From Williamsia sp. (GTDB taxonomy: Bacteria; Actinomycetota; Actinomycetes; Mycobacteriales; Mycobacteriaceae): DNA of 64,000 nt. The position numbers and the translations under genes are program-made. Positions 45,345 through 64,000 of this stretch are shown piece after piece (the stretch's first letter is position 1; every line of letters starts with the position of its first letter). The DNA is taken from the NCBI RefSeq assembly GCF_016462415.1, contig NZ_JAEMTF010000003.1, positions 28,837-92,836 of the forward strand, in the 5' to 3' direction. The notes under the pieces were generated by a model that worked only from the letters and a program-made list of their open reading frames with translations, had not been told where the DNA came from and searched no databases.

Positions 45345-45683
45345 ATGAACTGCGACAGGGTGGTTCTGCTTCAGCGCATTTCGACACACCACCAGCGCTC
45401 CCAGGGCAGCGGTCAGGGCCAGACAGTGCACCGCAAGGTCGCCGAACTGCTCGCCCGGATCCTCGCGACATGCGGGGATGACGCGCCCCTGGCCCGCTCC
45501 GCGGTCAGCGACGGGGCATTCACCCATCCCGACAGCGCGGTCCGGCACGAGCTGGCTGCGGTGCTGCGGAAGCTGAATCTGCCCCAGCACGCCTCACTCG
45601 CCCGGGTAGGGCGTGCTGCAAACGACCTCCTCGGCGCCCACCTGGTCGACAACGACCTCATGTCCCGACAGGAGCATCCATGA
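45345..45683 (+). CDS. hypothetical small protein
   Basis: ORF whose stop overlaps the coupling-protein start (ATGA at 45680-45683). The 5' end is uncertain, because an alternative frame (45296..) also looks partly coding. Confidence 0.4.
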   Translation: MNCDRVVLLQRISTHHQRSQGSGQGQTVHRKVAELLARILATCGDDAPLARSAVSDGAFTHPDSAVRHELAAVLRKLNLPQHASLARVGRAANDLLGAHLVDNDLMSRQEHP

Positions 45684-47473
45684 CCACTCCCGGAAAACCC
45701 AAGCAGCCCAAGAGCACTGCCGAAGTTGAGCTGTTGTTTGGTCTCCTTGTGATCGTCCTGGCGGTGTGCGGGGCGATTGACCTCGCATTGCAGCTGGGCA
45801 CCGACCAGACGGTCCCGTGGTTCCCACCCGTCGCGGTCCTCCATCTGATCACCGGAGAACTTGCGTGGTCGACCGGAACGACGGTGGCCGCGGCGGTCAT
45901 GTTCGCTCTAGCCCTCGCGGTCATTGTCGGTGTCGTGGTCCTTCTGGCGGGTCGCCGCCGCCGACGCAGCCGGGTCGACACCATTGCCTCCAAGCTTGGC
46001 CACGGCGATTCGGTGAGCTCGTTGACCGCGCGTGCCGCGACCGCCAAGGCCAAGAGCCTGTACGTCGTTTCCGACGCGGGTCCGGGCATTCTGCTCGGCC
46101 GAATGGTCCACGGCCGCGGTGAGCGGTTGTACGCCTCCTGGGAGGACACCCAGCTCGACATCTGGGGACCACGCACCGGCAAGTCCACCTCGCGGATCAT
46201 CCCGGCGATCATGGACGCCCCCGGCGCGGTTATCGCGACGAGCAACAAACGCGACCTCGTCGACGCCACCCGAGATCCGCGCGCGCAACTCGGCTCCAAG
46301 CCGTGGGTGTTCGACCCGCAGGACATGGTTGGCGAAGTACCGACGTGGTGGTGGAACCCGCTGTCCTACGTCGTCGACGACGTCTCGGCGATCAAGCTCG
46401 CCGACCTGTTCGCCGCCGGATCTTCCGACCCGGGAGCGAAGACTGACGCGTTCTTCGACCCGGAGGGCAAAGACGTCCTTGCGGCTACTCTGCTCGCCGC
46501 CGCGCTGGACGGGCGCCCGGTCACCCAGGTCTACAGCTGGGTGACCACACCCAGCATGGAGGCGGCCGTCGTGTTGCGGCGCAACGGCTACGACCTGATG
46601 GGTGACGCGCTCGCCGCACACATTAGCTCCCCCGAAAAGCAAAAAGCGGGTGTCTTCGGCACCGCCAAGAAGACGGCCGGCTGCCTGCGACTTCGGGGCT
46701 TTCAGCCGTGGGTCACCCAGACCGGCGGACACCGACCGCACCTCGACGTCGAACAGTTCGTGCGCAACGGCGACACCCTGCACCTGCTGTCGAAGGAAGG
46801 GGCCGGAACCGGTGGACCGTTGGTCGCCGGTCTCACCGTGGCGATCATCGAAGAAGCCGAACGCCAAGGATCTCTCTCGCGCGGTGGACGCCTTGCCACA
46901 CCACTGCTGGCCGCACTCGACGAGGCCGCGAACATCGTGCGCTGGCCACAACTTCCGAACCTTTACAGCCACTACGGGTCGCGCGGAATCATGCTGATGA
47001 CCATGCTCCAGTCCTGGTCACAGGGCGTGGAGTGCTGGGGCGAAGCGGGCATGAAGAAGCTGTGGTCAGCGGCGAACGTGAAGGTTTACGGCGGCGGCGT
47101 GTCCGAATTGGAGTTCCTGCGCAGCATGTCCGAGCTGGTCGGCGACTACGACTACATCGGCTCGTCGACGTCGTCGGGATCAGGCAACGGCAGCAGCGGC
47201 TCAGTCAGCCGTCAGGCCGCATCCGGGCGGATCCTCACCGCGGCCCACCTCAACGAGTGGCCCCGCGGCCGCGCGCTGGTGTTCTCCTCCGGCAACCGGG
47301 CAACGGTGATCAAACCCGAGCCGTGGATGGCGGGCCCCCACGCGAGGGCAATCGAAACGTCGATCAAGGCAAACGATCCCACCGCCGACACAACCCTGGG
47401 CGACCTGCGCCACGGCCTGACCGCCGTTCCCCTCCAATCAGCAGTCGACACAACGAAAACGAGAGCGTCATGA
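45680..47473 (+). CDS. type IV coupling protein (VirD4/TraG/TraD family)
   Basis: Two N-terminal TMs, Walker A GPRTGKSTS (about 46165-46188), and Walker B region LLAALDEAANI. Confidence 0.85.
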   Translation: MTTPGKPKQPKSTAEVELLFGLLVIVLAVCGAIDLALQLGTDQTVPWFPPVAVLHLITGELAWSTGTTVAAAVMFALALAVIVGVVVLLAGRRRRRSRVDTIASKLGHGDSVSSLTARAATAKAKSLYVVSDAGPGILLGRMVHGRGERLYASWEDTQLDIWGPRTGKSTSRIIPAIMDAPGAVIATSNKRDLVDATRDPRAQLGSKPWVFDPQDMVGEVPTWWWNPLSYVVDDVSAIKLADLFAAGSSDPGAKTDAFFDPEGKDVLAATLLAAALDGRPVTQVYSWVTTPSMEAAVVLRRNGYDLMGDALAAHISSPEKQKAGVFGTAKKTAGCLRLRGFQPWVTQTGGHRPHLDVEQFVRNGDTLHLLSKEGAGTGGPLVAGLTVAIIEEAERQGSLSRGGRLATPLLAALDEAANIVRWPQLPNLYSHYGSRGIMLMTMLQSWSQGVECWGEAGMKKLWSAANVKVYGGGVSELEFLRSMSELVGDYDYIGSSTSSGSGNGSSGSVSRQAASGRILTAAHLNEWPRGRALVFSSGNRATVIKPEPWMAGPHARAIETSIKANDPTADTTLGDLRHGLTAVPLQSAVDTTKTRAS

Positions 47474-51161: not shown

Positions 51162-52511
51162 CTAGTGCAGCGCTCGGACAACTCCGTGGATCGCACGGTT
51201 GATCCAGGCGGCGTCGCAGACGGCGATACCGTCGATCGTTCCTTCGTAGACGCCGTGGTGATCACGTGCAGTGGCCGACCATGTTCCGGTGATGGCGGTC
51301 GCGTCGCAGTCTCTAGGCACTAGCAAAACAACCTCGCCGTTTGGCGAGGTCACTACGTCGCGTGGTCGAAGCTCGTTTAGCGAGATCGCGAGTTCGGCCG
51401 GTCCGTTGATGCGGAGACCACCGGGGGTCGGCGGCAGTACAGGGATCCGCGCTGCTTCAGGACGCTTAGTGATTGCGTAATTCGGAATGGGGATTGAGAA
51501 CGGTCTCGGACCGTAAGCCCTCGGCGGGGTGGGGATCAGTTTTGCGGCGTTGCTGACCGATCCTTGAGCCCTATGAGCTATTACGGGCTCGTTGAACCGC
51601 ACTGATACCCGAACTCCCTCCAGAAACGTGTCATTGAGGTTCGCGATGCGTAGGCGGAATGGCTGCCAGCAGGCCAGGATGTGTTCGATTACGTCCGGGA
51701 TGGCGTTCTTTGCGGCCGTGGCCCATTCGGCGACCTCGCCGAGATACTCGTCTCGGCTTCGAGGATCCGGCTCTTGTGAGAGCGCCGCGATGTTGGCCGG
51801 CGTGAAGATGTTGCTTCCGGCCATGCCGCGGTAGGAAGTTTGAGCCGACGCATCGGGAAGTGCACGCCTGAGCTGCGCGGCGGTTCGGTCGACATACATG
51901 GTGAGCGCAGCGTCGTCGTAGCCGCAGTGAAGGGCGTCGCCGTCGCCCGTCACAGCGATGCTCGCATCGAGCGGTGTCTTGCGCGTCCGGGCAATGAGCG
52001 CCCGGATTTCGCCACCCTTCGCACGACGTGTTGCTCCGTCAGTCCGAATGTAGATGTCGCCGTCGACCAACCCATCGGCCCCATCGCTATGGCACGTCGC
52101 TATGACTGTCGGCTCCGGAGGGGCGACAACGATGACAACGACATCTTTCCCGTCAAGCTGCACTCGCTGCACATCCCAATGCGGCCCGTTATCGCCAATA
52201 GCGGCTCGCACCGCATCGGCGAGCTGGTGCATCTCGAAGGGCTGCACCCCCACCACAGCGTTCGGCGCGATACCGAGAACCATGATCGCGTGCCCGTCCA
52301 GCCACGGCGCAGCCACGGCCGGATCGCGGTTCGATGCGCCGAGAATGAACTTCGCGACCTTGACCCGCCCACTCTTCTGCGTCAGCTCAATGTCTGACTT
52401 GAGCTCGAGGAAGTGCCGTTCGGCACGATCATCGGTGGCCACCAGGTGCTCGATGAGCGTGGTCCATCCCATCTGCCCTCTCGGCAGATGAGTGAAATCA
52501 GGGTTCGCCAC
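51162..52511 (-). CDS. AlbA_2 / Schlafen-like DNA-binding domain protein with an unknown C-terminal half
   Basis: The N-terminal ~190 aa fit the AlbA_2 pattern: ERHFLELKSDIE, VAKFILGASNRD, HAIMVLGIAPNAVVGV, KDVVVIVVAPPEP and GDIYIRTDGATRRAKGGEIRALI. Confidence 0.6.
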   Translation of the reverse strand: MANPDFTHLPRGQMGWTTLIEHLVATDDRAERHFLELKSDIELTQKSGRVKVAKFILGASNRDPAVAAPWLDGHAIMVLGIAPNAVVGVQPFEMHQLADAVRAAIGDNGPHWDVQRVQLDGKDVVVIVVAPPEPTVIATCHSDGADGLVDGDIYIRTDGATRRAKGGEIRALIARTRKTPLDASIAVTGDGDALHCGYDDAALTMYVDRTAAQLRRALPDASAQTSYRGMAGSNIFTPANIAALSQEPDPRSRDEYLGEVAEWATAAKNAIPDVIEHILACWQPFRLRIANLNDTFLEGVRVSVRFNEPVIAHRAQGSVSNAAKLIPTPPRAYGPRPFSIPIPNYAITKRPEAARIPVLPPTPGGLRINGPAELAISLNELRPRDVVTSPNGEVVLLVPRDCDATAITGTWSATARDHHGVYEGTIDGIAVCDAAWINRAIHGVVRALH

Positions 52512-52674: not shown

Positions 52675-53895
52675 TCATGCGGAAGTCGAGGGCTTGGTGA
52701 TAACGACGGGAAGTATTGCCAGCGAGACGCGCCGCCCTTCTGCGTCGGCGGTGAAGACGTAGTCCACCAGCCGCGCCGGGTCGCCACCTTCGACGGTCTC
52801 TACGTACTTGGGGTGCGCTTCTGCCGCGGAGTGCAGCTTGTCGATGATGGCGACCGGGTCGGCGGCGCCGATGAACATCACCAGCGCCGCTTTGCTGTCG
52901 CGCCAGACCAGGTAACCGAGCAGCTGTGTGAGAGCATCGGTGGCGGTCTTTTGGCCGCGCCAGATCTTCAGCTCCGCGATGAAGGCGTTGCGGTCCTCAT
53001 GGCGGATGAGGATGTCGGTCTTGCCCTCCCCGTTGAACAGTTCGCCGCCAGCAGCTCCTTGCCAGTAGCTGTTGAGAGTCCCCAGCAGCAGATCGCGTAA
53101 CCCCTCCTCATCCAGTTTCCGTGTGGTGGCCGGGGACCGCTCAATGGTGTTTGCCCACGACCGCACGGCGTCCAGCGTGTCTCGGTACACCGCTTCTTCC
53201 AGGACGGGCTCGGCCACCACTCCGGCCTGTTCGCTCCGCTCTTTGAGGGAGACATGTTTACGTTTCGCCGGTACGGATGGTGGCCGCGGTGCGTCCAGCT
53301 TCCGTACGGGGATATTCAAGTCTGCGACGACCGCCCGGTCGTTCTCAATGCGCGAGCGGCGAGCGGCAACGACCTCACGGAGGCGTGTATCGGCGAGCCT
53401 TAGGAAGTCCCGCAGCTCGCTGTTTGCCCACTCAGCTCGTCGGATCATGTCGGCCCGCGCATCTTTGAGGCGGTCAGTAATGATCTCGCTCGTGAGTATC
53501 GGTGCGACTACCCGAACATCGAACTCGCGCCCGTTGACGGTGCCGATCTGAGGCTCGCCCGAGAAGTCGATGGTCCGCGCGCGGTGTGTCAGTAGCGAGA
53601 CGGTGCCGAGGATCGGATACGAGACAACGAACTGGCTGGCCCGCACTTGGCGCATCTCTCGCGTATGTCGGTCGGGCAGATGGAGGGTGGTTTCCTTCGT
53701 CGGACTCCTGGTCGCGTTCCCCCAGTCGAACGAGACCTCGACGGGCATGTGCTCGTCGAGCAACCTCGACACGAGCACGTCCGCGTCTTCTGCCAGGAGT
53801 GCATCTGGGTCCATTCGATCGACCTCAGTAATCGCAGTGTTGAGATGCGAGTGCAGATGGTTGCCGAGCTCCGAGCCCCCACCGAACGGGCTCAT
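52675..53895 (-). CDS. hypothetical protein with a C-terminal PD-(D/E)xK-like nuclease motif
   Basis: ORF 52675..54621 trimmed to ATG 53895 (MSPFGGGSELG...), which forms an ATGA overlap with the relaxase stop. The upstream 242 codons are an Arg-rich shadow of the relaxase gene. C-terminus: GEGKTDILIRHEDRNAFIAELKIWRGQKTATDALTQLLGYLVWRDSKAALVMF (D...E-x-K). Confidence 0.6.
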   Translation of the reverse strand: MSPFGGGSELGNHLHSHLNTAITEVDRMDPDALLAEDADVLVSRLLDEHMPVEVSFDWGNATRSPTKETTLHLPDRHTREMRQVRASQFVVSYPILGTVSLLTHRARTIDFSGEPQIGTVNGREFDVRVVAPILTSEIITDRLKDARADMIRRAEWANSELRDFLRLADTRLREVVAARRSRIENDRAVVADLNIPVRKLDAPRPPSVPAKRKHVSLKERSEQAGVVAEPVLEEAVYRDTLDAVRSWANTIERSPATTRKLDEEGLRDLLLGTLNSYWQGAAGGELFNGEGKTDILIRHEDRNAFIAELKIWRGQKTATDALTQLLGYLVWRDSKAALVMFIGAADPVAIIDKLHSAAEAHPKYVETVEGGDPARLVDYVFTADAEGRRVSLAILPVVITKPSTSA

Positions 53896-55553
53896 GAGCG
53901 CGGTCCGATCTCGCGTTCGGTGCCGCCACGGCGGCGGGCTGGTTCGGCGGGGGTGAGTGTGTTGGATACCGCCGATCCGGGTTCGCGGCGCGGCGCGGTC
54001 GGAGCGATCGGGAAGTCTCCACGAGCGCGCTCGACCGGGGACTGTTGCGCCGAGACAGGTGTGGCTGCGACGGCGGGGATCGCGTTGACGCGGTCCAGTT
54101 CCGACCGCGCCATTGCCGTCAGTGCTTGCGCGCGCTGGAGGTCGCCGGCCGCGCTGTGGGACGCTGCGATGGCGTCGACTGCGGCGAGGAGCTGACGGAT
54201 CAGGACGGTGTAGGCCAGGGTGCTGTTGGCGTGGGCGGTGGCGGTCATCAGGATCATCGCGACCCCACCGGCCGAGACCCGGCCTGCCTTCTTCGGCAAC
54301 GCACGGTGCGCCTGGATGCCCGCCGACCGCGACAGCGCGTCTGACGCGGCCGCGAGCGGGCCGGGTACCGGCTCGGTGCGCGCCGACCATGCGGCGAATA
54401 CCCCGGCGGTCTGTCCGGCAGCGCGTGCCCACGCGGCGCGATCGTCGGCGGGGATGGTCCGCAGGTACGCGGTCCACTTCTCCAGGTCGGCGTGCGCGGC
54501 GCGCAGCAGATCGGGTTGGGTGCCCTTGCGCCGGTTCGCGCCGCGCATCGCCGGTCGTCCGCGCTTCGCGCGCCGCCACTCGGCTGCGGCCTCCAGCGAC
54601 TGCTGCGGGGTATCGTCCCACTCGGCGCGCAGACGCGGCAGCGACAGATCCTTACCGAGCTGTCCTCCACCAAACCAGATGGGTTTGGCGTCGAAGTCGC
54701 GCGACCCGTCACTGTTCCTTGGGGCCTGGGCAACGGAGTAGCCAGTGACGACGTCTTCGCGACCGGCGGCGTACCGCGGCCGGATTAACAGGCCTTCGGC
54801 GCGCACCCGGCGCACAAAGTCGACCTCGGTTCGCGCGGACGTCGCGCACGCCCGCACACTGCGAGCCAACGCGACCCGCGACGGCTCGCTGTCGTTGCGG
54901 CCTTCGGTAGTCGCCACGCGGGCGGCCTTCTCCGCATCCGCGCGGGAGAAGCCACGCGAAACGATTCCGGCTGCGCGGCCCTCGGTGATCGTCAGGCCGT
55001 ACTTGAGTTCCAACTCCGCCGCGACTGACTGAGTCTTCTTCCAGTCGTTCCACAGCGCCACCTTGGTGCCATCCTCACGCACACAGGTCGCGGCGATGTG
55101 GATGTGGTCATTCCCGGCGGCCGACTTTCCGTGATGAATCGCAACCCACCGCGCGGGCGACAGCCCTTCCTCGGCGAAGCCCATCTCGCGCATGAAGTCG
55201 GTAGCGATCTCGCCCCACTCGGTATCGGAAACAACCCGGTCGTCGGCTCTCAGGGACAACGAGCAGTGCCACACGTGTGCATCTCGCACGCCATCGGTGA
55301 GCCACTTTAAGTCGTCGCCCATAACTCGTTTCGGCACGGTCACCTCGGTGCCGAAAACGCGTCGAGGATGTTCCAACTTCCGCGCGATGTCGCGAGCCTC
55401 GAGCGCCGAGAGTTCTGCGTCGTCGTGCCACGCCATGATCGCGGGATCACCGCCAACGAGGTGCGGAGTCTCGTGTTCGTTGGCCTTGCCCGGTCCGACG
55501 AGGTAGCGCAGTAAGCCGGCCATCGTTGCGCCACGCGTCACGTTCGGGATCAT
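53892..55553 (-). CDS. relaxase / mobilisation nuclease (MobA-VirD2-type domain)
   Basis: ORF 53892..55760 trimmed to ATG 55553 (MIPNVTRGATMAGLLRYLVGPGK...). It has the VWHCSLSL block and the histidine triad region HHGKSAAGNDHIHIAAT. The long C-terminal region is helical. Confidence 0.85.
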   Translation of the reverse strand: MIPNVTRGATMAGLLRYLVGPGKANEHETPHLVGGDPAIMAWHDDAELSALEARDIARKLEHPRRVFGTEVTVPKRVMGDDLKWLTDGVRDAHVWHCSLSLRADDRVVSDTEWGEIATDFMREMGFAEEGLSPARWVAIHHGKSAAGNDHIHIAATCVREDGTKVALWNDWKKTQSVAAELELKYGLTITEGRAAGIVSRGFSRADAEKAARVATTEGRNDSEPSRVALARSVRACATSARTEVDFVRRVRAEGLLIRPRYAAGREDVVTGYSVAQAPRNSDGSRDFDAKPIWFGGGQLGKDLSLPRLRAEWDDTPQQSLEAAAEWRRAKRGRPAMRGANRRKGTQPDLLRAAHADLEKWTAYLRTIPADDRAAWARAAGQTAGVFAAWSARTEPVPGPLAAASDALSRSAGIQAHRALPKKAGRVSAGGVAMILMTATAHANSTLAYTVLIRQLLAAVDAIAASHSAAGDLQRAQALTAMARSELDRVNAIPAVAATPVSAQQSPVERARGDFPIAPTAPRREPGSAVSNTLTPAEPARRRGGTEREIGPRS

Positions 55554-55639
55554 TGCGCGGCGATCCGATTGGCTACTCGGCGCCGTGCGCTCGCTGGCGG
55601 TGGGTGGACGTCGATCGGTGCCATCCTCGTCCCCTCTTC

Positions 55640-55740
55640 GGCCCAGCGCAGCGACCCCACATCGTGGGGACTCACACCAAAAGTGTGAAAGATGCCCCAG
55701 CGCAGCGCAAGTGGCATCTCGACTTAGGGCACCTAAGTCC
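55640..55740. other. candidate oriT
   Basis: About 90-190 nt upstream of the relaxase start there are three hairpins. They are CCCCAC-atc-GTGGGG (55655-55669), AGATGCC-n16-GGCATCT (55690-55719) and ACTTAGG-gca-CCTAAGT (55722-55738). There is also a direct repeat CCAGCGCAGCG (55643-55653 and 55697-55707). Confidence 0.4.
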
Positions 55741-55783
55741 ATAGCTTGCTCCCTCGGCATAGCGGGATACTGTCCAATTCAGT

Positions 55784-57423: not shown

Positions 57424-60400
57424 TTACCGGTCCAGGCCGGCGTCGAGGCGCCGACCCCGGTCTTTGCCACATCCAAGTCCGCGTCCCTCGTCGGTGGAAA
57501 CACGGCGTGTGAGTGCGCCGGTGGCCGGCGCCGGGAAGTCGCCAACGAGGGCGATAGTCTCTGAATGCTCTTCCGCCCATTCCCGCGCCTGGTGCTCGTG
57601 CTTGCGACGCATAACGGTCACGTACTCGTCTTTGCTCATCCCCTCCGATGCCGCAGTGAACTCGGTCGGGTTGAGATCCAGGCTCCACCCGGGTTGGCGA
57701 CCTTGCTCACCCATGCGCGCCGCTGCTTCGGCGCGCTTGGCGACCGCGCCAGCAGAGTTCTCGGCCTGCTGAATCTCGAGGCACAGCGACGCCAGCTCGA
57801 CCTTGATATGCGCCAGCTCATCGGCGCGCGAAAACGGTGTATCCATGCGCGGCGCCTGCAGCGCCACTTCACGTCGCCATCCGTTGAGCTTGGTCTCCAG
57901 ACGCGCCGGCACATCGATCAGTGATTCGTGGGAGTTCTCCAACCGCGTCGCCAGACCGTTGGCCAGCGCCGCCTTCGACTGCCCGGTATCGGCACGCTGA
58001 CCGGCGTCATCGACCTTGCCCCACAGCTGTTCGCGGGTGACATAGAACTGAGGACGGCCCGGAACGTCAAGCCACACGTACAGCTCGTCGTTGAGCGACG
58101 CGCGCGCCGCCTTCGCCACGACACCGGTGTCGAACTCCGCGAGAGTCACCGAGATGGACATACCCCGGCCCTTCAACTCCACGAAAGAGGCTCGCGCTCG
58201 CTCGAGCAGGTCGGCCGAGCGGTCCTTGCGCTCGAGTGCGCAACACCCTTCGATGGAGAATGTCTTGCCGGCGTCGAGCCACTGCGCCACCTTGTCGGCC
58301 AAGTCCGAAGCGGTGCCCTGCATTGCCTCGGTCTTCTCGATCTCGCGGTCGTTGTTGCGGACAACAGAGCGCGCGTGGTTGCGGCCGTCGGTGTGCGCAT
58401 CTGACAACGCCGATAGGCTCGCGACGTCGGAGTCAAGCTGCGCCATCCGCATGTAGCGGGGGTCGCCGGTCGCGGCTGCCTTCGTCGCGGCTGCCGCGTC
58501 GGCGAGGTTGTCATCGGCGATGTCGGCGACCTGGGTCACCTCGTCGCCGAGTTGCCCGGTCTTGGCCTGCTGGATGAACGCCGCTTTCGACTCCACCGTC
58601 GCCCACATCACGGTGTCGGTGGTCGACTCGGTGACGTAGTTGAAGATCTGGACCTCGGGGTTCTGATTGCCCTGGCGCAACATTCGACCCTCACGCTGTT
58701 CCAGGTCCGCCGGGCGCCAAGGCACGTCCATGTGGTGCAGCGCGACCATCCGCGCCTGCACGTTGAGCCCGGTGCCCATTTTCGGAGTCGACCCGACCAG
58801 GACCGCAATCTTGCCCGACCGGCAGTCGGCCTGCATCGCCAATTTCTGCGATGGCGATTTCGCGTCATGGATGAACACGACCGCCTCGGCGGGGACCCCG
58901 GCATCGACCACCATGTCCTTGAGGTTCTGATAGACCGACCGCGCTCCGGGTTTCGGTGTGCCGCGATCGCAAAACACCAACTGCAACCCGCCACGGCGCG
59001 GCGACGGAGTGCCGTCCTCGGTGCGGTACCGGTTGTCTTTGGTGTCGTGATAAATCGTCGCGACCTGCTCGGCGACGGCGTCGGCGCGGGTGTTGCCCGG
59101 ATCGGGTGCGAGGTTGGCCAGCATCGGATCGATCGCGACGTTGCGGCCGTCGTTGATGACTTTCAAGATGTTGTCGGTCGCCATCTCCCGCGGATCAAAG
59201 TTCGACATCCGGTATTCGAGGTCGGTGATGAAATCGCGACGCTCCTGCCCCGGAGTGGAAGTTATGACCTGGCGGCCTTCGAAACTCGGCAACGCCGCGG
59301 GCACCTGGTCGCGGGTGACGACGTCGGTGTACTGCGCGGCCATCGCGAACATCTCTTTCGGGTTCGAGAACGCCGCCACCTTCGACACCACCATGATCCG
59401 GGTGCCGGTCGCGTTGGTGACCGTCTCCGACTTCGTCGCGGTGAACGACGCCGCCCAGTCGGTGATCGAGCGAACTCCCGCCACCTCCAACACATCAGGA
59501 CGCAGGTACTGCTGCATCACCCACGCCTCGGCCAACGAGTTCGCGATCGGCGTACCGGTCGCGAACGTCGCCACTCGCTCCGCGCCCGGGGTGATCACCC
59601 GGCCCGCAGCGCGGGCTTCGTTCTGTCGTCGGCTGCGCAGATAATCGAGCTTCATGGACAGGTCCTCCGCCTTGTCCGACCCCTTGGGCAACGCCAACGT
59701 CGCCACCGCGCACTGCCGTGACTTGTTTTTGAAGTCGTGCGCCTCGTCGATGAACAGGTAGTCCGCGCCGGTCTGCTCGAACGTCACCCCCGCGTCCTTT
59801 TTCGCCTGCTCGGTCGCCGCCTCCAACTTCTTGCTCAGCGCCTTCTTCGCCTTCTCGATCCGCTTGACCGTGGCGTCACTCTGCCCGCCGGCCGCACGCC
59901 CTGCCGTCATCTCCTCGTCCAATTCGGCAACCTGGGCGCGGATATAGGCGACCCGCTGATCAGGATGCACCCGGATCTTTTCGAACACCGACGACGGGAT
60001 GATCACCATGTCCCAGTCCGACGTCGCGGTCTGCGCCGCGAACACCCGCCGATCCTCGGCGTCCATCCCCTTGGCCCCGACCAACACATTCGCCGCCGGA
60101 TACCACTGCTTGAGCTCCCGGCCGAACTGCTCGATCAGATGCGTCGGCACGACAATCCAAGGCTGCGAGACCAGGCCGCGGCGTTTAAGTTCCATCGCGG
60201 CCATGAACATTGTTCCGGTCTTGCCCGCGCCCACGACGTGGTCCAGGAGCACAGTCGGCTCGGCGGTCACCCGGGCCACCGCATCGCGCTGATACCGGTG
60301 TGGGGTGAACACCGGAGACAGACCGGGCAGGTCCAGGCGGCTGCCGTCATGTGACGGTTTGACCCACGTGTTGAACCTGTTGTTCCACTCGGTCACCAGC

Positions 60401-63249
60401 CGTTCTCGGCGGTCGTCGTCGGACCACACCCACGTCCGGAACTCGCCGGCAATCTTCTCCGCCTGGACCTGGGCGTAGACGGTGGCCTTTGTGTCGACTG
60501 CCGGGGCTCCCTCCTCGACCGCGCCCTTGGAGTTGCGGACCTCGATGGGGCGTTGGTTCATCAACCTGTCGAGCAGCTCGACTGCTGACATCGACTTGTG
60601 GCTGTCCGCGTTGTCGGCGCCGTAGTCCACCCGCATCGATTGGGTGTTGAGCTGACCCGCGGGCACCGACACCATCCACGTACCGGCGGCACGTTCCACC
60701 GTCGCCTGCTGCGCATCGAAGGTCTCGCGGACGAACTGTGCGTAGTCATGCGGCGCGATCCAGGTCGCACCCAACGCCACCGGACCCATCTGCGACGGCT
60801 GTTTGAGTGGCGGCACCACCTCGGCCAGTGCCGCCTCCACCTCCCGCCAGTCCTGGGTCGGGGTGTCCTGCACCTGAGTGACGGCCGTGGCGTGTTTGGC
60901 GCGCACATTGCCCGACAGGGCCGTCGAGCACGGCAGCAACTCACTCGGGTTGTCGACGTCGATGAACACCAACCCGCGCACCGATTCCCGCGTGGTGTCG
61001 CTGTCTTGGCCCAAGAGACTGGCAATTCGGTCGAGGTCGATGCGGCCGCGTTCTCCCATGCAGATCGCGACCGCGTCTTCCGGTGTGTCGGCCGACAGCA
61101 CCGGGACCGGGGCGACAACGACGTCGCGGGCGAACACTGCGGTCTTCGACACCGCCCCGGTTTCCTCGTCGAACCGCTCCAGCGCCATCACCCCGGCGAT
61201 CCCCGGATCACTGGTGACCGCCTCGAGGTGGGTTTGGCGTTTCACTCTCGGCGAGGACTGCCACGCCTTCTCTTCCAGCTCGCCGAGAACCTTTTCCGGT
61301 AGCTCGCCGAGGAACGAGACACCATCATCGTCGCGGTTGTCCTCGCGCCACTTCGTCTCCGCGACCGCCAGGCGGGCCATCGCTTCGTGTTCGCTGCGTT
61401 CCTTGCCGCCCGACCACTTCATCCGATTGATCGGTCCGTAGGCGGCGACGTAGGCGTCGTAGGTCGTGCCCAGGTCGCGACGCAGGCCTTCGCGGTGCGC
61501 CGCGGTGGTGTCGTCGGTGCGCTGAGATGCGATGACCTGTTCGGTCAGGTTGCGCAGCCGCAGCAGATGCCGGGTCTCAGTGGTCCGGGTCTTGGGGACC
61601 TTGATCGGGTCGACCCCGTCGATTCCCTTGCGCACGAACCCCTGTGAGTCCTCATCCCACTCCACGCGTCCGATCGGGACGTCCTCGCCGTAGAGGCCCG
61701 CCGCGGTGGCCACGCCCGCCTCCAGCGTCGCCGCGACAGACTCGGCCTGCACAGGGTGCGGACTGTAGGTCAGCCGGATCGTGGGACGGTCCACGAGCAT
61801 CTCCGAGATCGCCTCGGCTTTGCGTGCCGACGCGATGATCGAGGCGAGGGATTCCCGCACCGCAGTCGCCGTGTCGCGGTCCGGATCGACCTCGACGCGC
61901 ATCTGTCCACCCCGGTACATGCCGTGATCGGCGACGGTCGTGCCCAACACGTGCCGAGGGGTGCGCTCGAAGTAGCCGTTGACATCCACCGTCCGAGTGC
62001 CCCCGTTCTGACGATCGGCGACCTCCACTTTCACCGTGCGCAACCAATTCGGGTTCTGCTCAGGCAACGGGGCACCGAGTTCACGTTTGCGCAGCACCAG
62101 GATGTCGGTGACGACCTGGGTGCCCGCGACCCGACTGAAGGCGTTCGACGGCAACCGGACCGCGCCGACCAGATCGCCGAGCGCGTGCATGTCGCGGCGC
62201 GCTTTATCGTTCGCGGCATCCAAGGTGCCCGAGGTGGTGACGGCCATGACGTAGCCACCGGGCGCGGTCAGCCGGAGCGCCTTGATCAGGAAGTGATTGT
62301 GGATGTTGTGCTGCGCCGGGTTGTGGATCGGGTCGTGCACCGAGAACCCGCCGAACGGGACGTTGCCGATCGTCGCCGAAAACGTGTTCTCCGGGACACG
62401 GGTCGACTCGAACCCCTCGTTGCGGACCTGGGCGTTTGGGTAGAGCAGGTGCGCGATCTGGGCGGTCATCGGATCGTTCTCGACGCCGATCATCGTCGCC
62501 GAGGCGGGCGCCACCCCCATGAATGTGCCGCTGCCACAACCCGGTTCCAGCACGTAGCCACCGTCGAACCCTGCCTCGACGAGGGTGTCCCACATCGCGG
62601 CCGCGATCGCGGGATCGGTGTAGTGGGCGTTGAGTGTCGATGCTTTCGCATCCCGGTACTGCTCGGCGGTCAAGTACTCCTCACGCAACGCGCGGCGCGG
62701 AGTGTCCCACTCCTGCTTGGACTCATCGAAGATGTCGGACACCGCGCCCCACCCCGACCACTGGGACAACACCCGCTGCTCATCAGGCAGGGCAGCGCGG
62801 TTGAGGGTGTCGCAGCGCAGCACCACGTCGATCGCCGACATGTTCGCCTGCGCGCGAGCTTTGGCCCCTGAGGGCACCAGTACCTGCCCCGAATGGACGA
62901 ACGGCACCGCCGGAACCGGAGCTAACGGTGTCGGCGGTGCCACATCAACCGTGTGCGCAGCGGCGGTTGACTCGTCAGCGACGTCGTCGATCGGGTCGGG
63001 CTCCAGGCCCGCCACGACGTTGTCGGCCTTGACGTTTACGATCGACCCGTCCGGGCGGATTGCCGGGGTGGTGCGCACGCTCGACCACTGCGATAGCGGG
63101 ACACCCCGCTCCGATTGATCGACCTTCGGCAGAGTGTCGCGGTCGGCAGGCAACGGCGGCAGTACCGTGCCACCGGGGTCGATGACCGCTGGATCGGTCG
63201 GCAGACGCAGCTCGTCGACCGACTCGAACAGCAGTCCCTGCTCGGCTAG
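57424..63249 (-). CDS. giant N6-adenine DNA methyltransferase + SNF2/DEAD-like helicase fusion (P1 DarB-like); 5' end unresolved
   Basis: MTase motif I YVLEPGCGSGTF (about 62523-62560) and motif IV GNVPFGG (about 62347-62370). Helicase motif I GAGKTG (about 60215-60234), motif II FIDEAHDF (about 59731-59754) and motif VI QREGRMLRQGN (about 58667-58700). The ORF track extends to 63951, but those first 234 codons are a G/R/D-rich shadow of a better ORF in another frame. The first canonical in-frame starts are TTG 63153 and GTG 63078. Confidence 0.85.
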   Translation of the reverse strand, partial: LAEQGLLFESVDELRLPTDPAVIDPGGTVLPPLPADRDTLPKVDQSERGVPLSQWSSVRTTPAIRPDGSIVNVKADNVVAGLEPDPIDDVADESTAAAHTVDVAPPTPLAPVPAVPFVHSGQVLVPSGAKARAQANMSAIDVVLRCDTLNRAALPDEQRVLSQWSGWGAVSDIFDESKQEWDTPRRALREEYLTAEQYRDAKASTLNAHYTDPAIAAAMWDTLVEAGFDGGYVLEPGCGSGTFMGVAPASATMIGVENDPMTAQIAHLLYPNAQVRNEGFESTRVPENTFSATIGNVPFGGFSVHDPIHNPAQHNIHNHFLIKALRLTAPGGYVMAVTTSGTLDAANDKARRDMHALGDLVGAVRLPSNAFSRVAGTQVVTDILVLRKRELGAPLPEQNPNWLRTVKVEVADRQNGGTRTVDVNGYFERTPRHVLGTTVADHGMYRGGQMRVEVDPDRDTATAVRESLASIIASARKAEAISEMLVDRPTIRLTYSPHPVQAESVAATLEAGVATAAGLYGEDVPIGRVEWDEDSQGFVRKGIDGVDPIKVPKTRTTETRHLLRLRNLTEQVIASQRTDDTTAAHREGLRRDLGTTYDAYVAAYGPINRMKWSGGKERSEHEAMARLAVAETKWREDNRDDDGVSFLGELPEKVLGELEEKAWQSSPRVKRQTHLEAVTSDPGIAGVMALERFDEETGAVSKTAVFARDVVVAPVPVLSADTPEDAVAICMGERGRIDLDRIASLLGQDSDTTRESVRGLVFIDVDNPSELLPCSTALSGNVRAKHATAVTQVQDTPTQDWREVEAALAEVVPPLKQPSQMGPVALGATWIAPHDYAQFVRETFDAQQATVERAAGTWMVSVPAGQLNTQSMRVDYGADNADSHKSMSAVELLDRLMNQRPIEVRNSKGAVEEGAPAVDTKATVYAQVQAEKIAGEFRTWVWSDDDRRERLVTEWNNRFNTWVKPSHDGSRLDLPGLSPVFTPHRYQRDAVARVTAEPTVLLDHVVGAGKTGTMFMAAMELKRRGLVSQPWIVVPTHLIEQFGRELKQWYPAANVLVGAKGMDAEDRRVFAAQTATSDWDMVIIPSSVFEKIRVHPDQRVAYIRAQVAELDEEMTAGRAAGGQSDATVKRIEKAKKALSKKLEAATEQAKKDAGVTFEQTGADYLFIDEAHDFKNKSRQCAVATLALPKGSDKAEDLSMKLDYLRSRRQNEARAAGRVITPGAERVATFATGTPIANSLAEAWVMQQYLRPDVLEVAGVRSITDWAASFTATKSETVTNATGTRIMVVSKVAAFSNPKEMFAMAAQYTDVVTRDQVPAALPSFEGRQVITSTPGQERRDFITDLEYRMSNFDPREMATDNILKVINDGRNVAIDPMLANLAPDPGNTRADAVAEQVATIYHDTKDNRYRTEDGTPSPRRGGLQLVFCDRGTPKPGARSVYQNLKDMVVDAGVPAEAVVFIHDAKSPSQKLAMQADCRSGKIAVLVGSTPKMGTGLNVQARMVALHHMDVPWRPADLEQREGRMLRQGNQNPEVQIFNYVTESTTDTVMWATVESKAAFIQQAKTGQLGDEVTQVADIADDNLADAAAATKAAATGDPRYMRMAQLDSDVASLSALSDAHTDGRNHARSVVRNNDREIEKTEAMQGTASDLADKVAQWLDAGKTFSIEGCCALERKDRSADLLERARASFVELKGRGMSISVTLAEFDTGVVAKAARASLNDELYVWLDVPGRPQFYVTREQLWGKVDDAGQRADTGQSKAALANGLATRLENSHESLIDVPARLETKLNGWRREVALQAPRMDTPFSRADELAHIKVELASLCLEIQQAENSAGAVAKRAEAAARMGEQGRQPGWSLDLNPTEFTAASEGMSKDEYVTVMRRKHEHQAREWAEEHSETIALVGDFPAPATGALTRRVSTDEGRGLGCGKDRGRRLDAGLDR

Positions 63250-63827
63250 AGGCTCGGCTTGAGTCCGTGCTCGGCGAGAGCGGCGTTGCTGCGGGCCATC
63301 TCCTGCTCGACCGCCACCGCCAACTCCCCCGCCAGTGGATCGTCCGGGCCGACCGGCAGCGCCAGGCCGTCCTCCGCGCGCGCCGCGAGAAGCAGCTCCG
63401 CGGTCACCTGAAAGGCCGGCGTCCGATCCGGCCACACCATCTCCACCACCTGCTCGGTCTCGCGGTCCGGCTCGGTCCCGGCCTCGGTCGTCCACCGGTC
63501 CATCGCCGCCACCGGTATCGGTGTCTCGCTCGAGGGCTCGGGCTCCGCGTCGTCCGGATCCTGGTAGCCCTCCCACAGCTGATGGGTCACCCACTCGATC
63601 GCCGCCAACCGTGTCTGGTTGATCAACCCCAGCCGTTCCATGTAATCCGGTTCTCGACCCATCGCCGATGTCCAGGCCGCGATCGTCGGTCCCTGGTTGT
63701 CGGTCTGGAATTGCGACGCCTGTACTTCCAGCTCCTGCGTCTTCGCGGCCACCCAATCCTCGAAGCTGGCCCGATCCATCTCGGCCAGCTCTTGGGCGTA
63801 ACGCTGCACTATCTGCTCGCGGATCAT
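63246..63827 (-). CDS. hypothetical protein (193 aa), or the detached N-terminal part of the giant methylase-helicase
   Basis: ORF 63246..63917 trimmed to ATG 63827, which has AGGAGGAG 7 nt upstream. It has strong third-position G/C bias and a globular composition (MIREQIVQRYAQELAEMDRASFEDWVAAKTQELEVQ...). Confidence 0.65.
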   Translation of the reverse strand: MIREQIVQRYAQELAEMDRASFEDWVAAKTQELEVQASQFQTDNQGPTIAAWTSAMGREPDYMERLGLINQTRLAAIEWVTHQLWEGYQDPDDAEPEPSSETPIPVAAMDRWTTEAGTEPDRETEQVVEMVWPDRTPAFQVTAELLLAARAEDGLALPVGPDDPLAGELAVAVEQEMARSNAALAEHGLKPSL

Positions 63828-64000
63828 CGGCGGTCTCCTCCTGGTCAAGAGCGAATAGATCGAACTGGTCATCATCACGTGATGTAGCCACTGGTCGTGT
63901 CTCCCTGGTAAATGCACCAGACGACCCGCGCATTACGACAACGCGCCACACGAGCCGCCTGGCTCCTAACCGGGATTCACAGTCCGCCTACCGCAAATAC

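Follow-up and report, generated by a model that had tools for sequence, protein, structure and literature searches.

A DarB-like methylase-helicase gene of actinomycete plasmids that probably harbours a conserved gene nested out of frame

Two overlapping genes on one strand

The 64,000 nt of Williamsia sp. DNA analysed here (the window) carry near their end two overlapping open reading frames which, like all features of these genes mentioned below, lie on the reverse strand. The giant ORF covers 57424-63951, that is 2175 codons from GTG 63951 to a stop at 57426-57424. The shorter ORF1 covers 63246-63827, running from ATG 63827 to TAG 63248-63246 in the +1 frame relative to the giant ORF, and encodes 193 aa. 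It is preceded by the Shine-Dalgarno (SD) sequence AGGAGGAG (63835-63842) located 7 nt 5' of its ATG, where the giant frame reads Q-E-E. The GC content by codon position in the overlap is.73/.46/.85 for ORF1 and.86/.72/.46 for the giant frame, the codon usage of the latter being poor there (GC3 0.46). We confirmed the out-of-frame overlap reported in the initial annotation along with the ribosome binding site and third-position G/C bias it had assigned to the small ORF.

Giant codons 1-234 are rich in G/R/D/A, in accordance with the G/R/D-rich character described earlier. The giant-frame reading of the overlap itself (63249-63828, ~193 codons) is G/R/D/A/P-rich with ~10% hydrophobic residues, and its product is presumably a disordered linker. 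As also observed before, the frame turns protein-like again at codon 235 (63249), directly abutting the ORF1 stop. Three codons past this stop a stretch conserved in the giant frame (63154-63240) starts with QGLLF (63240-63226), hereafter motif 2, and continues as ESVDELRL-PTDPAVIDPGG-TVLPP. Past the ORF1 stop no canonical start occurs in frame before TTG 63151-63153, exactly as first annotated, and GTG 63078 is the next.

The DarB-like core and its genetic context

The part of the giant protein resembling DarB-like proteins is encoded by 57757-62877. It begins at residue 359, at VPSGAKARAQAN, ~110 residues before methylase motif I, and comprises a pre-methylase region, the methyltransferase, an SNF2/SF2 helicase and part of the C-terminal tail. 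All catalytic motifs quoted earlier were located: the N6-adenine methyltransferase motif I GCGSGTF (62541-62521, read directly as EPGCGSGTF) and motif IV NVPFGG (62364-62347, likewise by direct reading), the Walker A sequence GAGKTG (60231-60214), DEAH (59748-59737) and the helicase motif VI QREGRMLRQGN (58698-58666). The tail beyond motif VI measures about 410 aa, and not the ~600 aa first estimated.

In Pfam the giant protein scored above the cut-offs for SNF2-rel_dom, ResIII and Helicase_C, and relatives carry the precomputed Pfam family PF28553. PADLOC mad2 and MTase_II match residues 428-617, and further matches were found to the helicase C-domains of DrmD, BrxH and DpdE and to phrog DNA methyltransferase families. 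The match to phrog_10089, 'DarB-like antirestriction', reached E=3.9e-94, and by tblastn the proteins of Bcep22, DC1 and JC1 showed 32-33% identity over 87% of the 1707-aa core (E about 1e-115). With P1 DarB the methylase domain alone aligns, with 27.6% identity over 253 residues (query 81-333, E=3e-18). By these matches the predicted giant protein is a DarB-like N6-adenine methylase joined to an SNF2/SF2 helicase, and a distant relative of P1 DarB within the class rather than an orthologue. The P1 DarB-type architecture initially proposed is hence retained at the level of the class, while the match to P1 DarB itself does not extend beyond the methylase domain.

Methylase-SF2 helicase dyads form a class of polyvalent proteins described by Iyer et al. 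2017 (PMC5512222), with P1 DarB, which acts in cis to shield incoming DNA against type I restriction, as the archetype, and with a family-specific domain, LPD36, N-terminal to the methylase. P1 DarB has the same domain order as the giant protein, methylase then helicase, but is packaged in the phage head and has neither ORF1 nor the N-terminal motifs described below. In the closer Bcep22-type proteins (podophages of Burkholderia and Ralstonia, phrog_10089) the pre-methylase region, an EcoKI/TaqI-like N6-adenine methylase, the helicase and part of the tail align with the giant protein, and both reside on a mobile element that needs to evade restriction on entry. The phage proteins are virion-delivered and carry other added domains, e.g. 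a lytic transglycosylase, whereas the plasmid protein is extended at its N-terminus by ~360 lineage-specific aa composed of two QxxLF motifs, the off-frame linker and a P-rich stretch. To our knowledge no nested gene occurs in the Bcep22-type phage genes. The element in the window also encodes a MobA/VirD2 relaxase (53892-55760) and a VirD4/TraG T4 coupling protein (45680-47473), and the orthologue-bearing plasmids are of MOBF/MOBP type. Family membership and motif resemblance suggest that the giant protein may have an anti-restriction role on incoming plasmid DNA.

ORF1 encodes a separate acidic protein

The ORF1 protein is acidic (pI 4.15, with a range of 4.15-4.75 across 12 loci). It is all-helical, and its AlphaFold2 model has a mean pLDDT of 95.8. 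It belongs to a stand-alone family of ~200 aa with 179 cluster representatives, and a 100%-identical sequence is annotated in NCBI as a 193-aa protein. As the model is this confident, the family this large, and an SD and start of its own are found in every lineage, ORF1 is a genuine, separately initiated acidic helical protein. Searches of ORF1 against Pfam, NCBIfam, PADLOC and PHROGs gave no match, nor did the model match any PDB entry at E<=0.001 (best E-value 2.7). The acidity would fit an ArdA/Ocr-type DNA mimic, but we rejected this candidate as no ArdA/Ocr fold was matched in PDB or in the families.

The giant frame is kept open across ORF1

We surveyed 31 loci with both genes, later extended to 40-plus. 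The first survey covered Williamsia, Gordonia, Mycobacterium, Mycolicibacterium, Rhodococcus, Dietzia and Cryobacterium, thereby spanning Mycobacteriales and one Micrococcales plasmid. The giant frame is the -1 frame of ORF1 in 31/31, and the later loci agree. It is also stop-free across the overlap in all orthologues: no giant-frame stop was found across ORF1 in 28 loci from 10 lineages (<60% ORF1 identity between lineages), where codon shuffling predicts 0.9-3.5 stops per locus. In L057 there were 0 against 6.3 expected. Multiplying the most conservative P(0) of each lineage gives 1e-12. As an empirical control we took 193-codon chunks of the giant gene, which have 0.8x the expected number of -1-frame stops and of which 10/92 are stop-free; this control gives about 1e-9.6 for ten lineages, and the joint P is overall about 1e-10 to 1e-12. 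Copies of ORF1 without a downstream giant gene (L021-24 and L030) do contain -1-frame stops. Both frames are hence open beyond chance, and because the frame offset is identical in every examined locus with both genes, the out-of-frame arrangement is neither chance nor sequencing error.

Further we measured the synonymous fraction of pairwise codon differences per frame and segment. From the giant ATG to the ORF1 start (20 codons) the excess is modest: the giant frame has 0.32, the other frames 0.22 and 0.20. In the ORF1 body the fraction is 0.34 in the ORF1 frame and 0.09 in the giant frame, while past the ORF1 stop the giant frame reaches 0.43, compared with 0.11 for the ORF1 frame and 0.06 for the third. 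Codon-level selection thus changes frame at the ORF1 boundaries. Inside the overlap we saw no amino-acid-level conservation of the giant frame, only stop avoidance. Three lineages (L036, L056 and L057) have motif 2, of the general form Q-x-[SDGL]-L-F (EPEQLDLVF, QLSIFD and QLSLFD, respectively), on the last codons of ORF1 or ahead of its stop. Selection on the giant frame is seen in both flanks and, where motif 2 meets the ORF1 end, also within the overlap. Motif 2 and its surroundings carry synonymous changes in the giant frame, L035 and L036 differing there by no others, and CAG/CAA and other third-position exchanges are seen past the stop. The suggestion that the first residues after 63249 might be untranslated is not supported by this comparison.

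A conserved start and motif upstream of ORF1

Ahead of ORF1 the giant frame opens with a conserved SD and a canonical start, followed by an N-terminal peptide that fits the pattern M-x(6-12)-Q-x-D-L-F. The SD and start read GGAGAGGA-4 nt-ATG in mycobacteria, AGGAG-8 nt-ATG in Gordonia and AGGAG-8 nt-GTG in Cryobacterium, and examples of the peptide are MARKPKDAEQPDLFSLFDEE, VAKDSDDFQLDLFAE and, in the window, QFDLFAL. All typical lineages have an SD and start for both genes. The orthologues thus do show two separate genes with a conserved canonical start for the large one, the twist being that this start lies upstream of the small gene. The earlier view that the 2175-aa call is unlikely is not supported.

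Three candidate giant starts are found in the window. GTG 63951 has the SD-like AGGAG (63963-63967) 11 nt 5' of it, and relative L003, from which the sequence beyond the upstream end of the window was taken, has the same AGGAG 13 nt 5' of its own in-frame GTG. ATG 63931-63933 (giant codon 7) matches the position of the ATG of most lineages and has no SD directly 5' in the window lineage. GTG 63889-63891 (giant codon 21), by direct reading, follows GGGAGA (63905-63900) by 8 nt; with 7 residues separating it from the Q of QFDLF, it would have the spacing typical of the family. In the window lineage any of the three may be the start.

The QFDLF sequence (63853-63867, giant aa 29-33), hereafter motif 1, represents the Q-x-D-L-F peptide that is conserved in the giant frame 5' of ORF1 in nearly all lineages, N replacing Q in Gordonia. 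A search for homologues with the N-terminal 500 aa of the giant protein returned mostly fragments with arbitrarily called starts, and its sole use was the finding of P0276 (locus L052). This relative lacks ORF1 and reads GAGGGA-4 nt-GTG followed by M-x10-QLSLFD, placed directly on the methylase protein.

Motif 1 resembles the beta-clamp-binding motif, the consensus of which is QL[S/D]LF, with QLDLF as a strengthened, high-affinity form (PMC3664792). Among motifs 1 and 2 we find QLDLF (Cryobacterium, R. fascians), QLSLF (G. amicalis, P0276) and QFDLF (window, R. erythropolis), with QPDLF, QGSLF and QGLLF as further variants. Like clamp-binding motifs they are situated in terminal or low-complexity segments, the likeness being one of sequence match only. 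It should be noted that the word 'clamp' is absent from the description of the DarB-like class in PMC5512222, where no clamp binding is reported for these proteins.

Alternative explanations

The two genes could instead be connected by recoding at the junction, either through a -1 shift near the end of ORF1 that yields a ~2134-aa fusion, or through termination followed by re-initiation at a non-canonical start, be it CTG or a GTA/CTA/ATA that overlaps the stop, so that the giant protein begins at motif 2; a CTG or coupled re-initiation start had been among the readings of the initial annotation. The universal -1 relation would agree with this, as would the ORF1 stop being nearly always TAG or TAA (TGA in L039 and L053), the CTG start overlapping the stop (CTGA) that PGAP, the annotation pipeline of NCBI, calls in L053, and the typical loci, none of which has a canonical start between the ORF1 stop and motif 2 and at least 6 of which have none within 200 nt 3' of the stop. 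Nevertheless, we find recoding improbable. Across 18 loci, no X XXY YYZ heptamer or relaxed variant of it is shared within the final 450 nt of ORF1, the only strict heptamer being found in one locus at -148. A slip or hop at the stop itself is rejected, as the last sense codons (CGG, CGA, CGC, CAG, AGG, CTC, CAC, AAG, GGG and AGC, in equally diverse contexts) cannot re-pair at -1, +2 or +5, and take-off and landing pairs for a hop occur in single lineages only. None of the Rfam families matched 62800-64000. The CTG of motif 2, being CTC in L005, was rejected as a start, and the giant motif lies before or across the ORF1 stop in the three loci given above. Recoding would also offer no reason for a giant frame that is open along all of ORF1, nor for the SD, start and motif conserved 5' of it. 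At least in the variant lineages L032 and L053 a giant start at the junction is plausible; these have a different N-terminal domain without clear motifs, and GTG or CTG right at the ORF1 stop. Equally doubtful is initiation of the giant protein inside ORF1 at a GTG or ATG, e.g. at its invariant Trp132 (GTG 63435 in the window), whereby the last 55-65 ORF1 codons would be dual-coding and the long frame upstream untranslated. A GTG or ATG at the homologous position in almost all loci (-169 in mycobacteria, -187 in the window and -163 to -190 elsewhere) would account for the missing start past the ORF1 stop, but this NTG is largely a by-product of the invariant TGG, and L035 has no canonical giant-frame start from -565 to +59. 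Moreover, the stop depletion covers all of ORF1 and reaches beyond its start instead of being confined to the last third, and the SD, start and QxDLF peptide 5' of ORF1 would again have no explanation. Several giant-frame GTGs are found inside the overlap, and such in-frame GTG/ATG codons could give shorter giant isoforms.

Most public annotations of orthologues place the giant start past the junction, at the canonical codon met first (in the window TTG 63153 or GTG 63078), which would make the conserved stretch before it non-coding or regulatory. PGAP does so in L001, L002, L033, L034, L035 and L036, with starts +44 to +158 nt from the ORF1 stop. These positions are non-homologous and unconserved even between close relatives (a GTG in L003 is GTA in the window), and the stretch ahead of them evolves as giant-frame protein according to the synonymous fractions above, hence we regard such a start as highly unlikely. 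Relatives have GTA, GTG or CTG at positions neighbouring TTG 63153, which is probably not the giant start. As to the 1-nt indel suspected initially, by which a sequencing or assembly error or a recent pseudogenising frameshift would have split a fused ~2130-aa gene in this contig, the window junction does hold a 29-nt imperfect duplication: the imperfect 14-nt direct repeats GCCGAGCACGGACT and GCCGAGCAGGGACT (63233-63275) lie 29 nt apart, and span the ORF1 stop, the ORF1 tail LAEHGL mirroring the giant-frame LAEQGL; they are also present in L003. A few database proteins (P0050, P0084 and P0091) furthermore run from the N-terminal part of ORF1 into the giant frame, but these cross the off-frame, G/R-rich linker and lose the frame again further on, as is to be expected from error-prone assemblies. 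The same offset recurs in over 30 independent records, among them complete plasmids of six genera, and the identical 193-aa NCBI protein stands alone. A profile search of 1.84 billion representatives gave only stand-alone ORF1 and the few frameshift-like chimeras, with clean in-frame fusions in 0/179 family representatives. The universal -1 offset and the stand-alone ORF1 family effectively refute an indel, which we give next to no credence.

Proposed arrangement and comparison with known systems

We consider it rather likely that the locus encodes one continuous giant protein of 2155-2175 aa, starting upstream of ORF1, with ORF1 nested out of frame inside its gene. A single mRNA would then carry two overlapping same-strand genes. 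Translation of the giant gene would begin at a canonical codon 5' of ORF1 (GTG 63951, ATG 63933 or GTG 63891) and produce a short N-terminal peptide ending in Q-x-D-L-F, after which ribosomes would traverse all of ORF1 in the -1 frame, giving a linker of ~200 residues, rich in G/R/D/P, with a sequence dictated by the codons of ORF1. Past this linker the second motif, Q-x-[SDGL]-L-F...PTDPxxIDPGG, and the methylase-helicase body would follow. ORF1 would initiate at its own strong SD and ATG/GTG, 40-130 nt 3' of the giant start in the +1 frame, and give a separate acidic helical protein of ~200 aa.

Long genes nested in the same strand are known from comS inside srfA of Bacillus subtilis and from phiX174. 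As in these cases a complete gene lies inside a larger one in another frame, each with its own start. ORF1 with its ~200 codons is far longer than comS (46 codons), the nested gene here is the one under strong codon selection while the host frame is merely open, and plasmids from two orders of Actinomycetes have the arrangement conserved. Programmed -1 frameshift pairs such as dnaX, orfA-orfB of the IS3 family and the G/GT tail chaperones of phages likewise consist of a short ORF followed by a long -1-frame ORF without a start near the junction. The present pair differs from them in having no slippery heptamer, and in a giant frame that is open far upstream and has its own conserved start.

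From their resemblance to clamp-binding motifs, the two QxxLF motifs may tether the giant protein to the beta sliding clamp. Further, we speculate, with more doubt than conviction, that the ~200-codon gene conserved inside the giant gene in conjugative plasmids of Mycobacteriales and Micrococcales doubles, in its off-frame reading, as a disordered tether with a clamp-binding motif at either end. Such a tether would dock the methylase-translocase on sliding clamps that are loaded while the complementary strand of the incoming plasmid is synthesised. Methylation would then keep pace with synthesis and let the DNA escape restriction, and the acidic helical ORF1 protein would be a partner or regulator of the methylase-translocase.

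Implications

In bacteria, long genes nested within another on the same strand are rare, and claims of them are disputed. The present case, if true, would be unusually long (~200 codons) and old, being common to plasmids of two actinomycete orders, and it brings a clean statistical signature along with natural controls. It would also correct a systematic annotation error. Public annotations probably miss the nested arrangement; their giant starts are non-homologous (+44 to +158 nt, inside ORF1, or CTG) and would cut off the conserved N-terminus. ORF1 represents a new, confidently folded family of acidic proteins co-encoded with DarB-like methylase-helicases. The tblastn matches include M. ulcerans, M. 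abscessus and M. intracellulare, and clinically relevant mycobacteria are hence among the hosts of such plasmids. Finally, the putative clamp-binding motifs offer a hypothesis for how the DarB-like methylase-helicases of conjugative plasmids may find incoming DNA.

Layout of the overlapping genes and their setting

The giant methylase-helicase ORF runs on the minus strand from GTG 63951 to a stop at 57426-57424 (2175 codons). Within the 5' part of this ORF, read in a different frame, ORF1 extends from ATG 63827 to TAG 63248-63246 on the same strand (193 aa), with the Shine-Dalgarno (SD) sequence AGGAGGAG at 63842-63835 (minus strand), 7 nt before its ATG; the giant frame is the -1 frame of ORF1. 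Reading both ORFs bore out this out-of-frame arrangement as described in the initial annotation. Every methylase and helicase motif quoted there was located in the giant protein, which has Pfam matches to SNF2-rel, ResIII and Helicase_C, but the tail beyond helicase motif VI measures ~410 aa and not the ~600 aa claimed. Within the overlap, GC content by codon position comes to.73/.46/.85 in ORF1 and.86/.72/.46 in the giant frame, and the giant gene body has.67/.47/.84; compositionally, the "normal" coding frame of the overlap is ORF1. Read in the giant frame, the overlap gives a G/R/D/A-rich product with ~10% hydrophobic residues, and the first canonical in-frame start past the ORF1 stop is TTG 63153.

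The closest DNA matches were Gordonia plasmids at ~74% identity, and no phage DNA matches were found. Genes for a MobA/VirD2-type relaxase (53892-55760, minus) and for a VirD4/TraG coupling protein (45680-47473, plus) also lie in the window; the setting is a transferable element. A 449-aa ORF between these two regions (51162-52511, minus) has a weak Schlafen AlbA_2 match below the Pfam cut-off. The G+C content steps at ~30000 from ~0.59-0.63 (1-30000) to ~0.64-0.69 (30000-64000), which may mark a boundary between element modules or between host and element.

ORF1 as a separate gene

Searching 1.84 billion cluster representatives with a profile returned 179 ORF1 family members, almost all of them stand-alone proteins of 180-270 aa, and a 100%-identical copy of ORF1 is recorded as a hypothetical protein of Williamsia sp. 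With tblastn, ORF1 was detected in 76 PLSDB plasmid records, from Rhodococcus, Gordonia, Mycobacterium, Mycolicibacterium, Mycobacteroides, Dietzia and Cryobacterium. The loci compared comprised 26 from genomes, 15 from metagenomes and 15 from plasmids, along with two close relatives. ORF1 has an SD and a start in every lineage; variation in the overlap is greatest at ORF1 position 3, and the ORF1 frame has a synonymous fraction of 0.34 there, compared with 0.09 for the giant frame. On these comparative grounds we regard ORF1 as a real, separate gene. Its protein is acidic (pI 4.15-4.75), and AlphaFold2 gave an all-helical model from a 44-sequence alignment (mean pLDDT 95.8). ORF1 had no matches in Pfam, NCBIfam, PADLOC or PHROGs, and its model had no fold match in the PDB (best E-value 2.7), which leaves an ArdA/Ocr-like DNA mimic unsupported by fold.

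The giant frame across ORF1

In each of the 31 loci surveyed first that had a detectable ORF1 and giant N-terminus, the giant frame equals the ORF1 frame minus 1, and loci added later agree. Codon shuffling predicted 0.9-3.5 stops in the -1 frame of each ORF1, but none was observed in 21 of 21 loci; the +1 frame carries 4-16 stops, matching expectation. As a control we used 193-codon chunks of the giant gene, in which -1-frame stops occur at 0.8 times the expected number and 10 of 92 chunks are stop-free. With 28 loci grouped into 10 lineages (<60% ORF1 identity) and the most favourable member of each used, the joint probability of finding no stops is ~1e-12, or ~1e-9.6 by the empirical control. 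Stops are likewise absent from five further plasmid lineages, including one where 6.3 were expected. ORF1 copies lacking a downstream giant gene (loci L021-24 and L030) do contain -1-frame stops. The giant frame is thus kept open across the whole of ORF1.

It had been proposed that a 1-nt indel split one polypeptide in this contig. The constant -1 offset in the 31 loci and the later ones, together with an ORF1 family that is almost wholly stand-alone, contradicts this, and we give the idea practically no credence. A few longer family proteins (P0050, P0084, P0091 and P0064) begin in ORF1, pass into a G/R-rich giant-frame reading and in part leave the frame again further on, a pattern to be expected of error-prone assemblies rather than of domain fusions.

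The proposed N-terminus upstream of ORF1

In nearly every lineage an SD, a start and a conserved giant-frame peptide (motif 1, QxDLF) are found 40-130 nt upstream of the ORF1 start. The giant start reads GGAGAGGA-4 nt-ATG-ARKPKDAEQPDLFSLFDEE in mycobacteria, AGGAG-8 nt-ATG-ARNATPDDNTPNLFDLL in Gordonia and AGGAG-8 nt-GTG-AKDSDDFQLDLFAE in Cryobacterium and R. fascians, while the N-terminal peptides are ...EQPDLFSF in Dietzia and ...DDDQFDLFAL in the window. Over this 20-codon segment the synonymous fraction is 0.32 in the giant frame versus 0.22 and 0.20 in the others, and the ORF1 SD (GAGGAGG) encodes D/E-E-G in the giant frame. A relative lacking ORF1 (P0276, locus L052) has GAGGGA-4 nt-GTG followed by M-x10-QLSLFD directly on the methylase protein, making M-x(6-12)-Q-x-[SD]-L-F the ordinary N-terminus of this superfamily. 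In the same locus an SSB-like (OB-fold) gene (1-294), judged by eye from the translation, precedes the methylase gene.

Three in-frame minus-strand candidates for the giant start come before motif 1 in the window, with no one of them singled out: GTG 63951 with AGGAG 11 nt upstream, ATG 63933 without an SD, and GTG 63891, which follows GGGAGA at 8 nt and has the family-typical spacing to the Q.

In six mycobacterial loci (L005, L008, L009, L015, L019 and L029), a stretch G(C/T)TACCC(A/C)GACCCCG(A/C)CACC that lies 40 nt before the giant ATG and ahead of the giant SD shows nucleotide-level conservation. Gene callers extend ORF1 N-terminally through it ('GYPDPxT..ERTIW' in P0003-5 and P0091); a promoter or operator is the more likely explanation.

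The region past the ORF1 stop and other possible starts

Beginning 1-9 codons past the ORF1 stop, nearly all lineages carry the giant-frame sequence Q-x-[SDGL]-L-F-[DE]...PTDP[RA]xIDPGGxxLP, of which the first part is motif 2 (QxxLF). Substitutions there are third-position synonymous (CAG/CAA, TTC/TTT, CCG/CCA and so on), and giant position 3 is the most variable from ~660 nt past the giant ATG onward in 11 mycobacterial loci. The synonymous fraction of pairwise codon differences past the stop is 0.43 in the giant frame versus 0.11 and 0.06 in the others. This points to translation of the stretch in the giant frame, and the conserved peptide with its synonymous changes contradicts the suggestion that the residues following 63249 are untranslated. 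The PTDP peptide lies just past motif 2, at 63169-63201 in the window and correspondingly in orthologues; phage DarB-like proteins lack it.

No ATG, GTG or TTG lies between the ORF1 stop and motif 2 in any typical locus, and several loci have no canonical start even within 200 nt 3' of the stop. Most annotated starts of orthologues would place the beginning of the giant gene downstream of the junction, at +44, +59, +113, +119, +140 and +158 nt; one other lies inside ORF1 (-424) and another is a CTG at the stop. A downstream start seems very unlikely, as the annotated positions are non-homologous between orthologues (PGAP starts in L001, L002, L005, L033-L036 and L053) and the stretch past the stop evolves as giant-frame protein. 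By sequence comparison, the PGAP starts all appear to cut off or misplace the conserved giant N-terminus.

Recoding at the junction, by which ribosomes would pass from ORF1 into the giant frame, we consider improbable: no X XXY YYZ heptamer common to the loci was found, the last sense codons and the bases flanking the stop vary freely, and the CTG of motif 2 is replaced by CTC in one locus. Most telling are three lineages in which the ORF1 stop falls within or after the conserved giant-frame motif. In Dietzia (L036) the motif reads EPEQ-L(CTA)-DLVF, with only giant-frame-synonymous changes relative to L035; in one Gordonia locus (L056) QLSIFD is entirely upstream of the ORF1 TAG, and in G. amicalis (L057) QLSLFD straddles the TAA. 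This placement argues that the giant frame is read before ORF1 ends and, with the CTC, speaks against the CTG start or re-initiation proposed in the initial annotation. A similarly low probability is assigned to an internal start created by the invariant Trp132 codon of ORF1. In nearly all loci a G or A stands before this TGG codon, giving a giant-frame GTG or ATG 55-65 codons before the ORF1 stop (GTG 63433-63435 in the window), but L035 lacks it; this codon could serve a shorter isoform or be a by-product.

Almost all lineages that keep the giant gene end ORF1 with TAG or TAA, despite non-homologous stop positions. Just two of them, L039 and L053, use TGA, each after a C (CTGA), as do the giant-less copies L021-24; possibly TGA is avoided because [A/G/T]TGA would put a canonical giant-frame start directly on the stop. 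An imperfect 14-nt direct repeat, GCCGAGCACGGACT and GCCGAGCAGGGACT, spans the window's ORF1 stop (63233-63275, 29 nt apart) and is also present in L003. Since the ORF1 tail LAEHGL mirrors LAEQGL of the giant protein, the ORF1 C-terminus in the Williamsia lineage was probably born by a 29-nt duplication.

We therefore favour, as the probable arrangement, a continuous giant protein with ORF1 nested out of frame. What we read directly from the loci is the frame relation, the depletion of stops, the starts, the motifs and the selection on each frame; translation through the overlap in the giant frame we infer. A single mRNA would carry a separate start for each of the two frames. In the window the giant protein would be 2155-2175 aa long; it would begin with the QxDLF peptide, continue through a ~200-aa off-frame linker whose sequence is dictated by ORF1, and proceed to the second QxxLF motif with PTDPxxIDPGG, a P-rich stretch and the DarB-like core; ORF1 would be nested in the +1 frame.

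Relation to known systems

Bcep22-type "DarB-like antirestriction" proteins are homologues of the giant core, with 32-33% identity across 87% of its length, and phrog_10089 matches it as well (E=4e-94), so the DarB-like class assigned earlier holds. P1 DarB itself matches in the methylase domain only (27.6% identity), and orthology to it does not hold. The protein fits the methylase-SF2 helicase dyad of polyvalent proteins (PMC5512222); NCBIfam and PADLOC gave domain-level matches only.

The giant frame ends early (292-1238 aa) in L008, L009, L016, L037, L048 and L051 though the contig continues, and near-identical relatives read on (e.g. L010 versus L009), which suggests that the giant gene is often pseudogenised or split. 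R. opacus pCP105 (L032) and Rhodococcus sp. LW-XY12 pLW2 (L053) have an extra ~1000-aa N-terminal region, annotated DUF3072 in L032; the L053 protein is 3083 aa and the L032 gene is broken by an IS3 element. This lineage lacks the QxxLF motifs and has GTG or CTG right at the ORF1 stop.

A full-text literature search found no description of this conserved nested ~200-codon gene. The giant protein is a previously undescribed member of the known DarB-like class; the nested gene, together with the mis-annotated giant N-terminus, adds a new form to the known but rare kind of same-strand overlapping genes. Both flanking motifs match the beta-clamp-binding consensus by sequence resemblance, QLDLF being the strengthened clamp-binding motif used in PMC3664792. 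From this match we tentatively suggest that the giant protein may be recruited to clamps on newly replicated incoming DNA.
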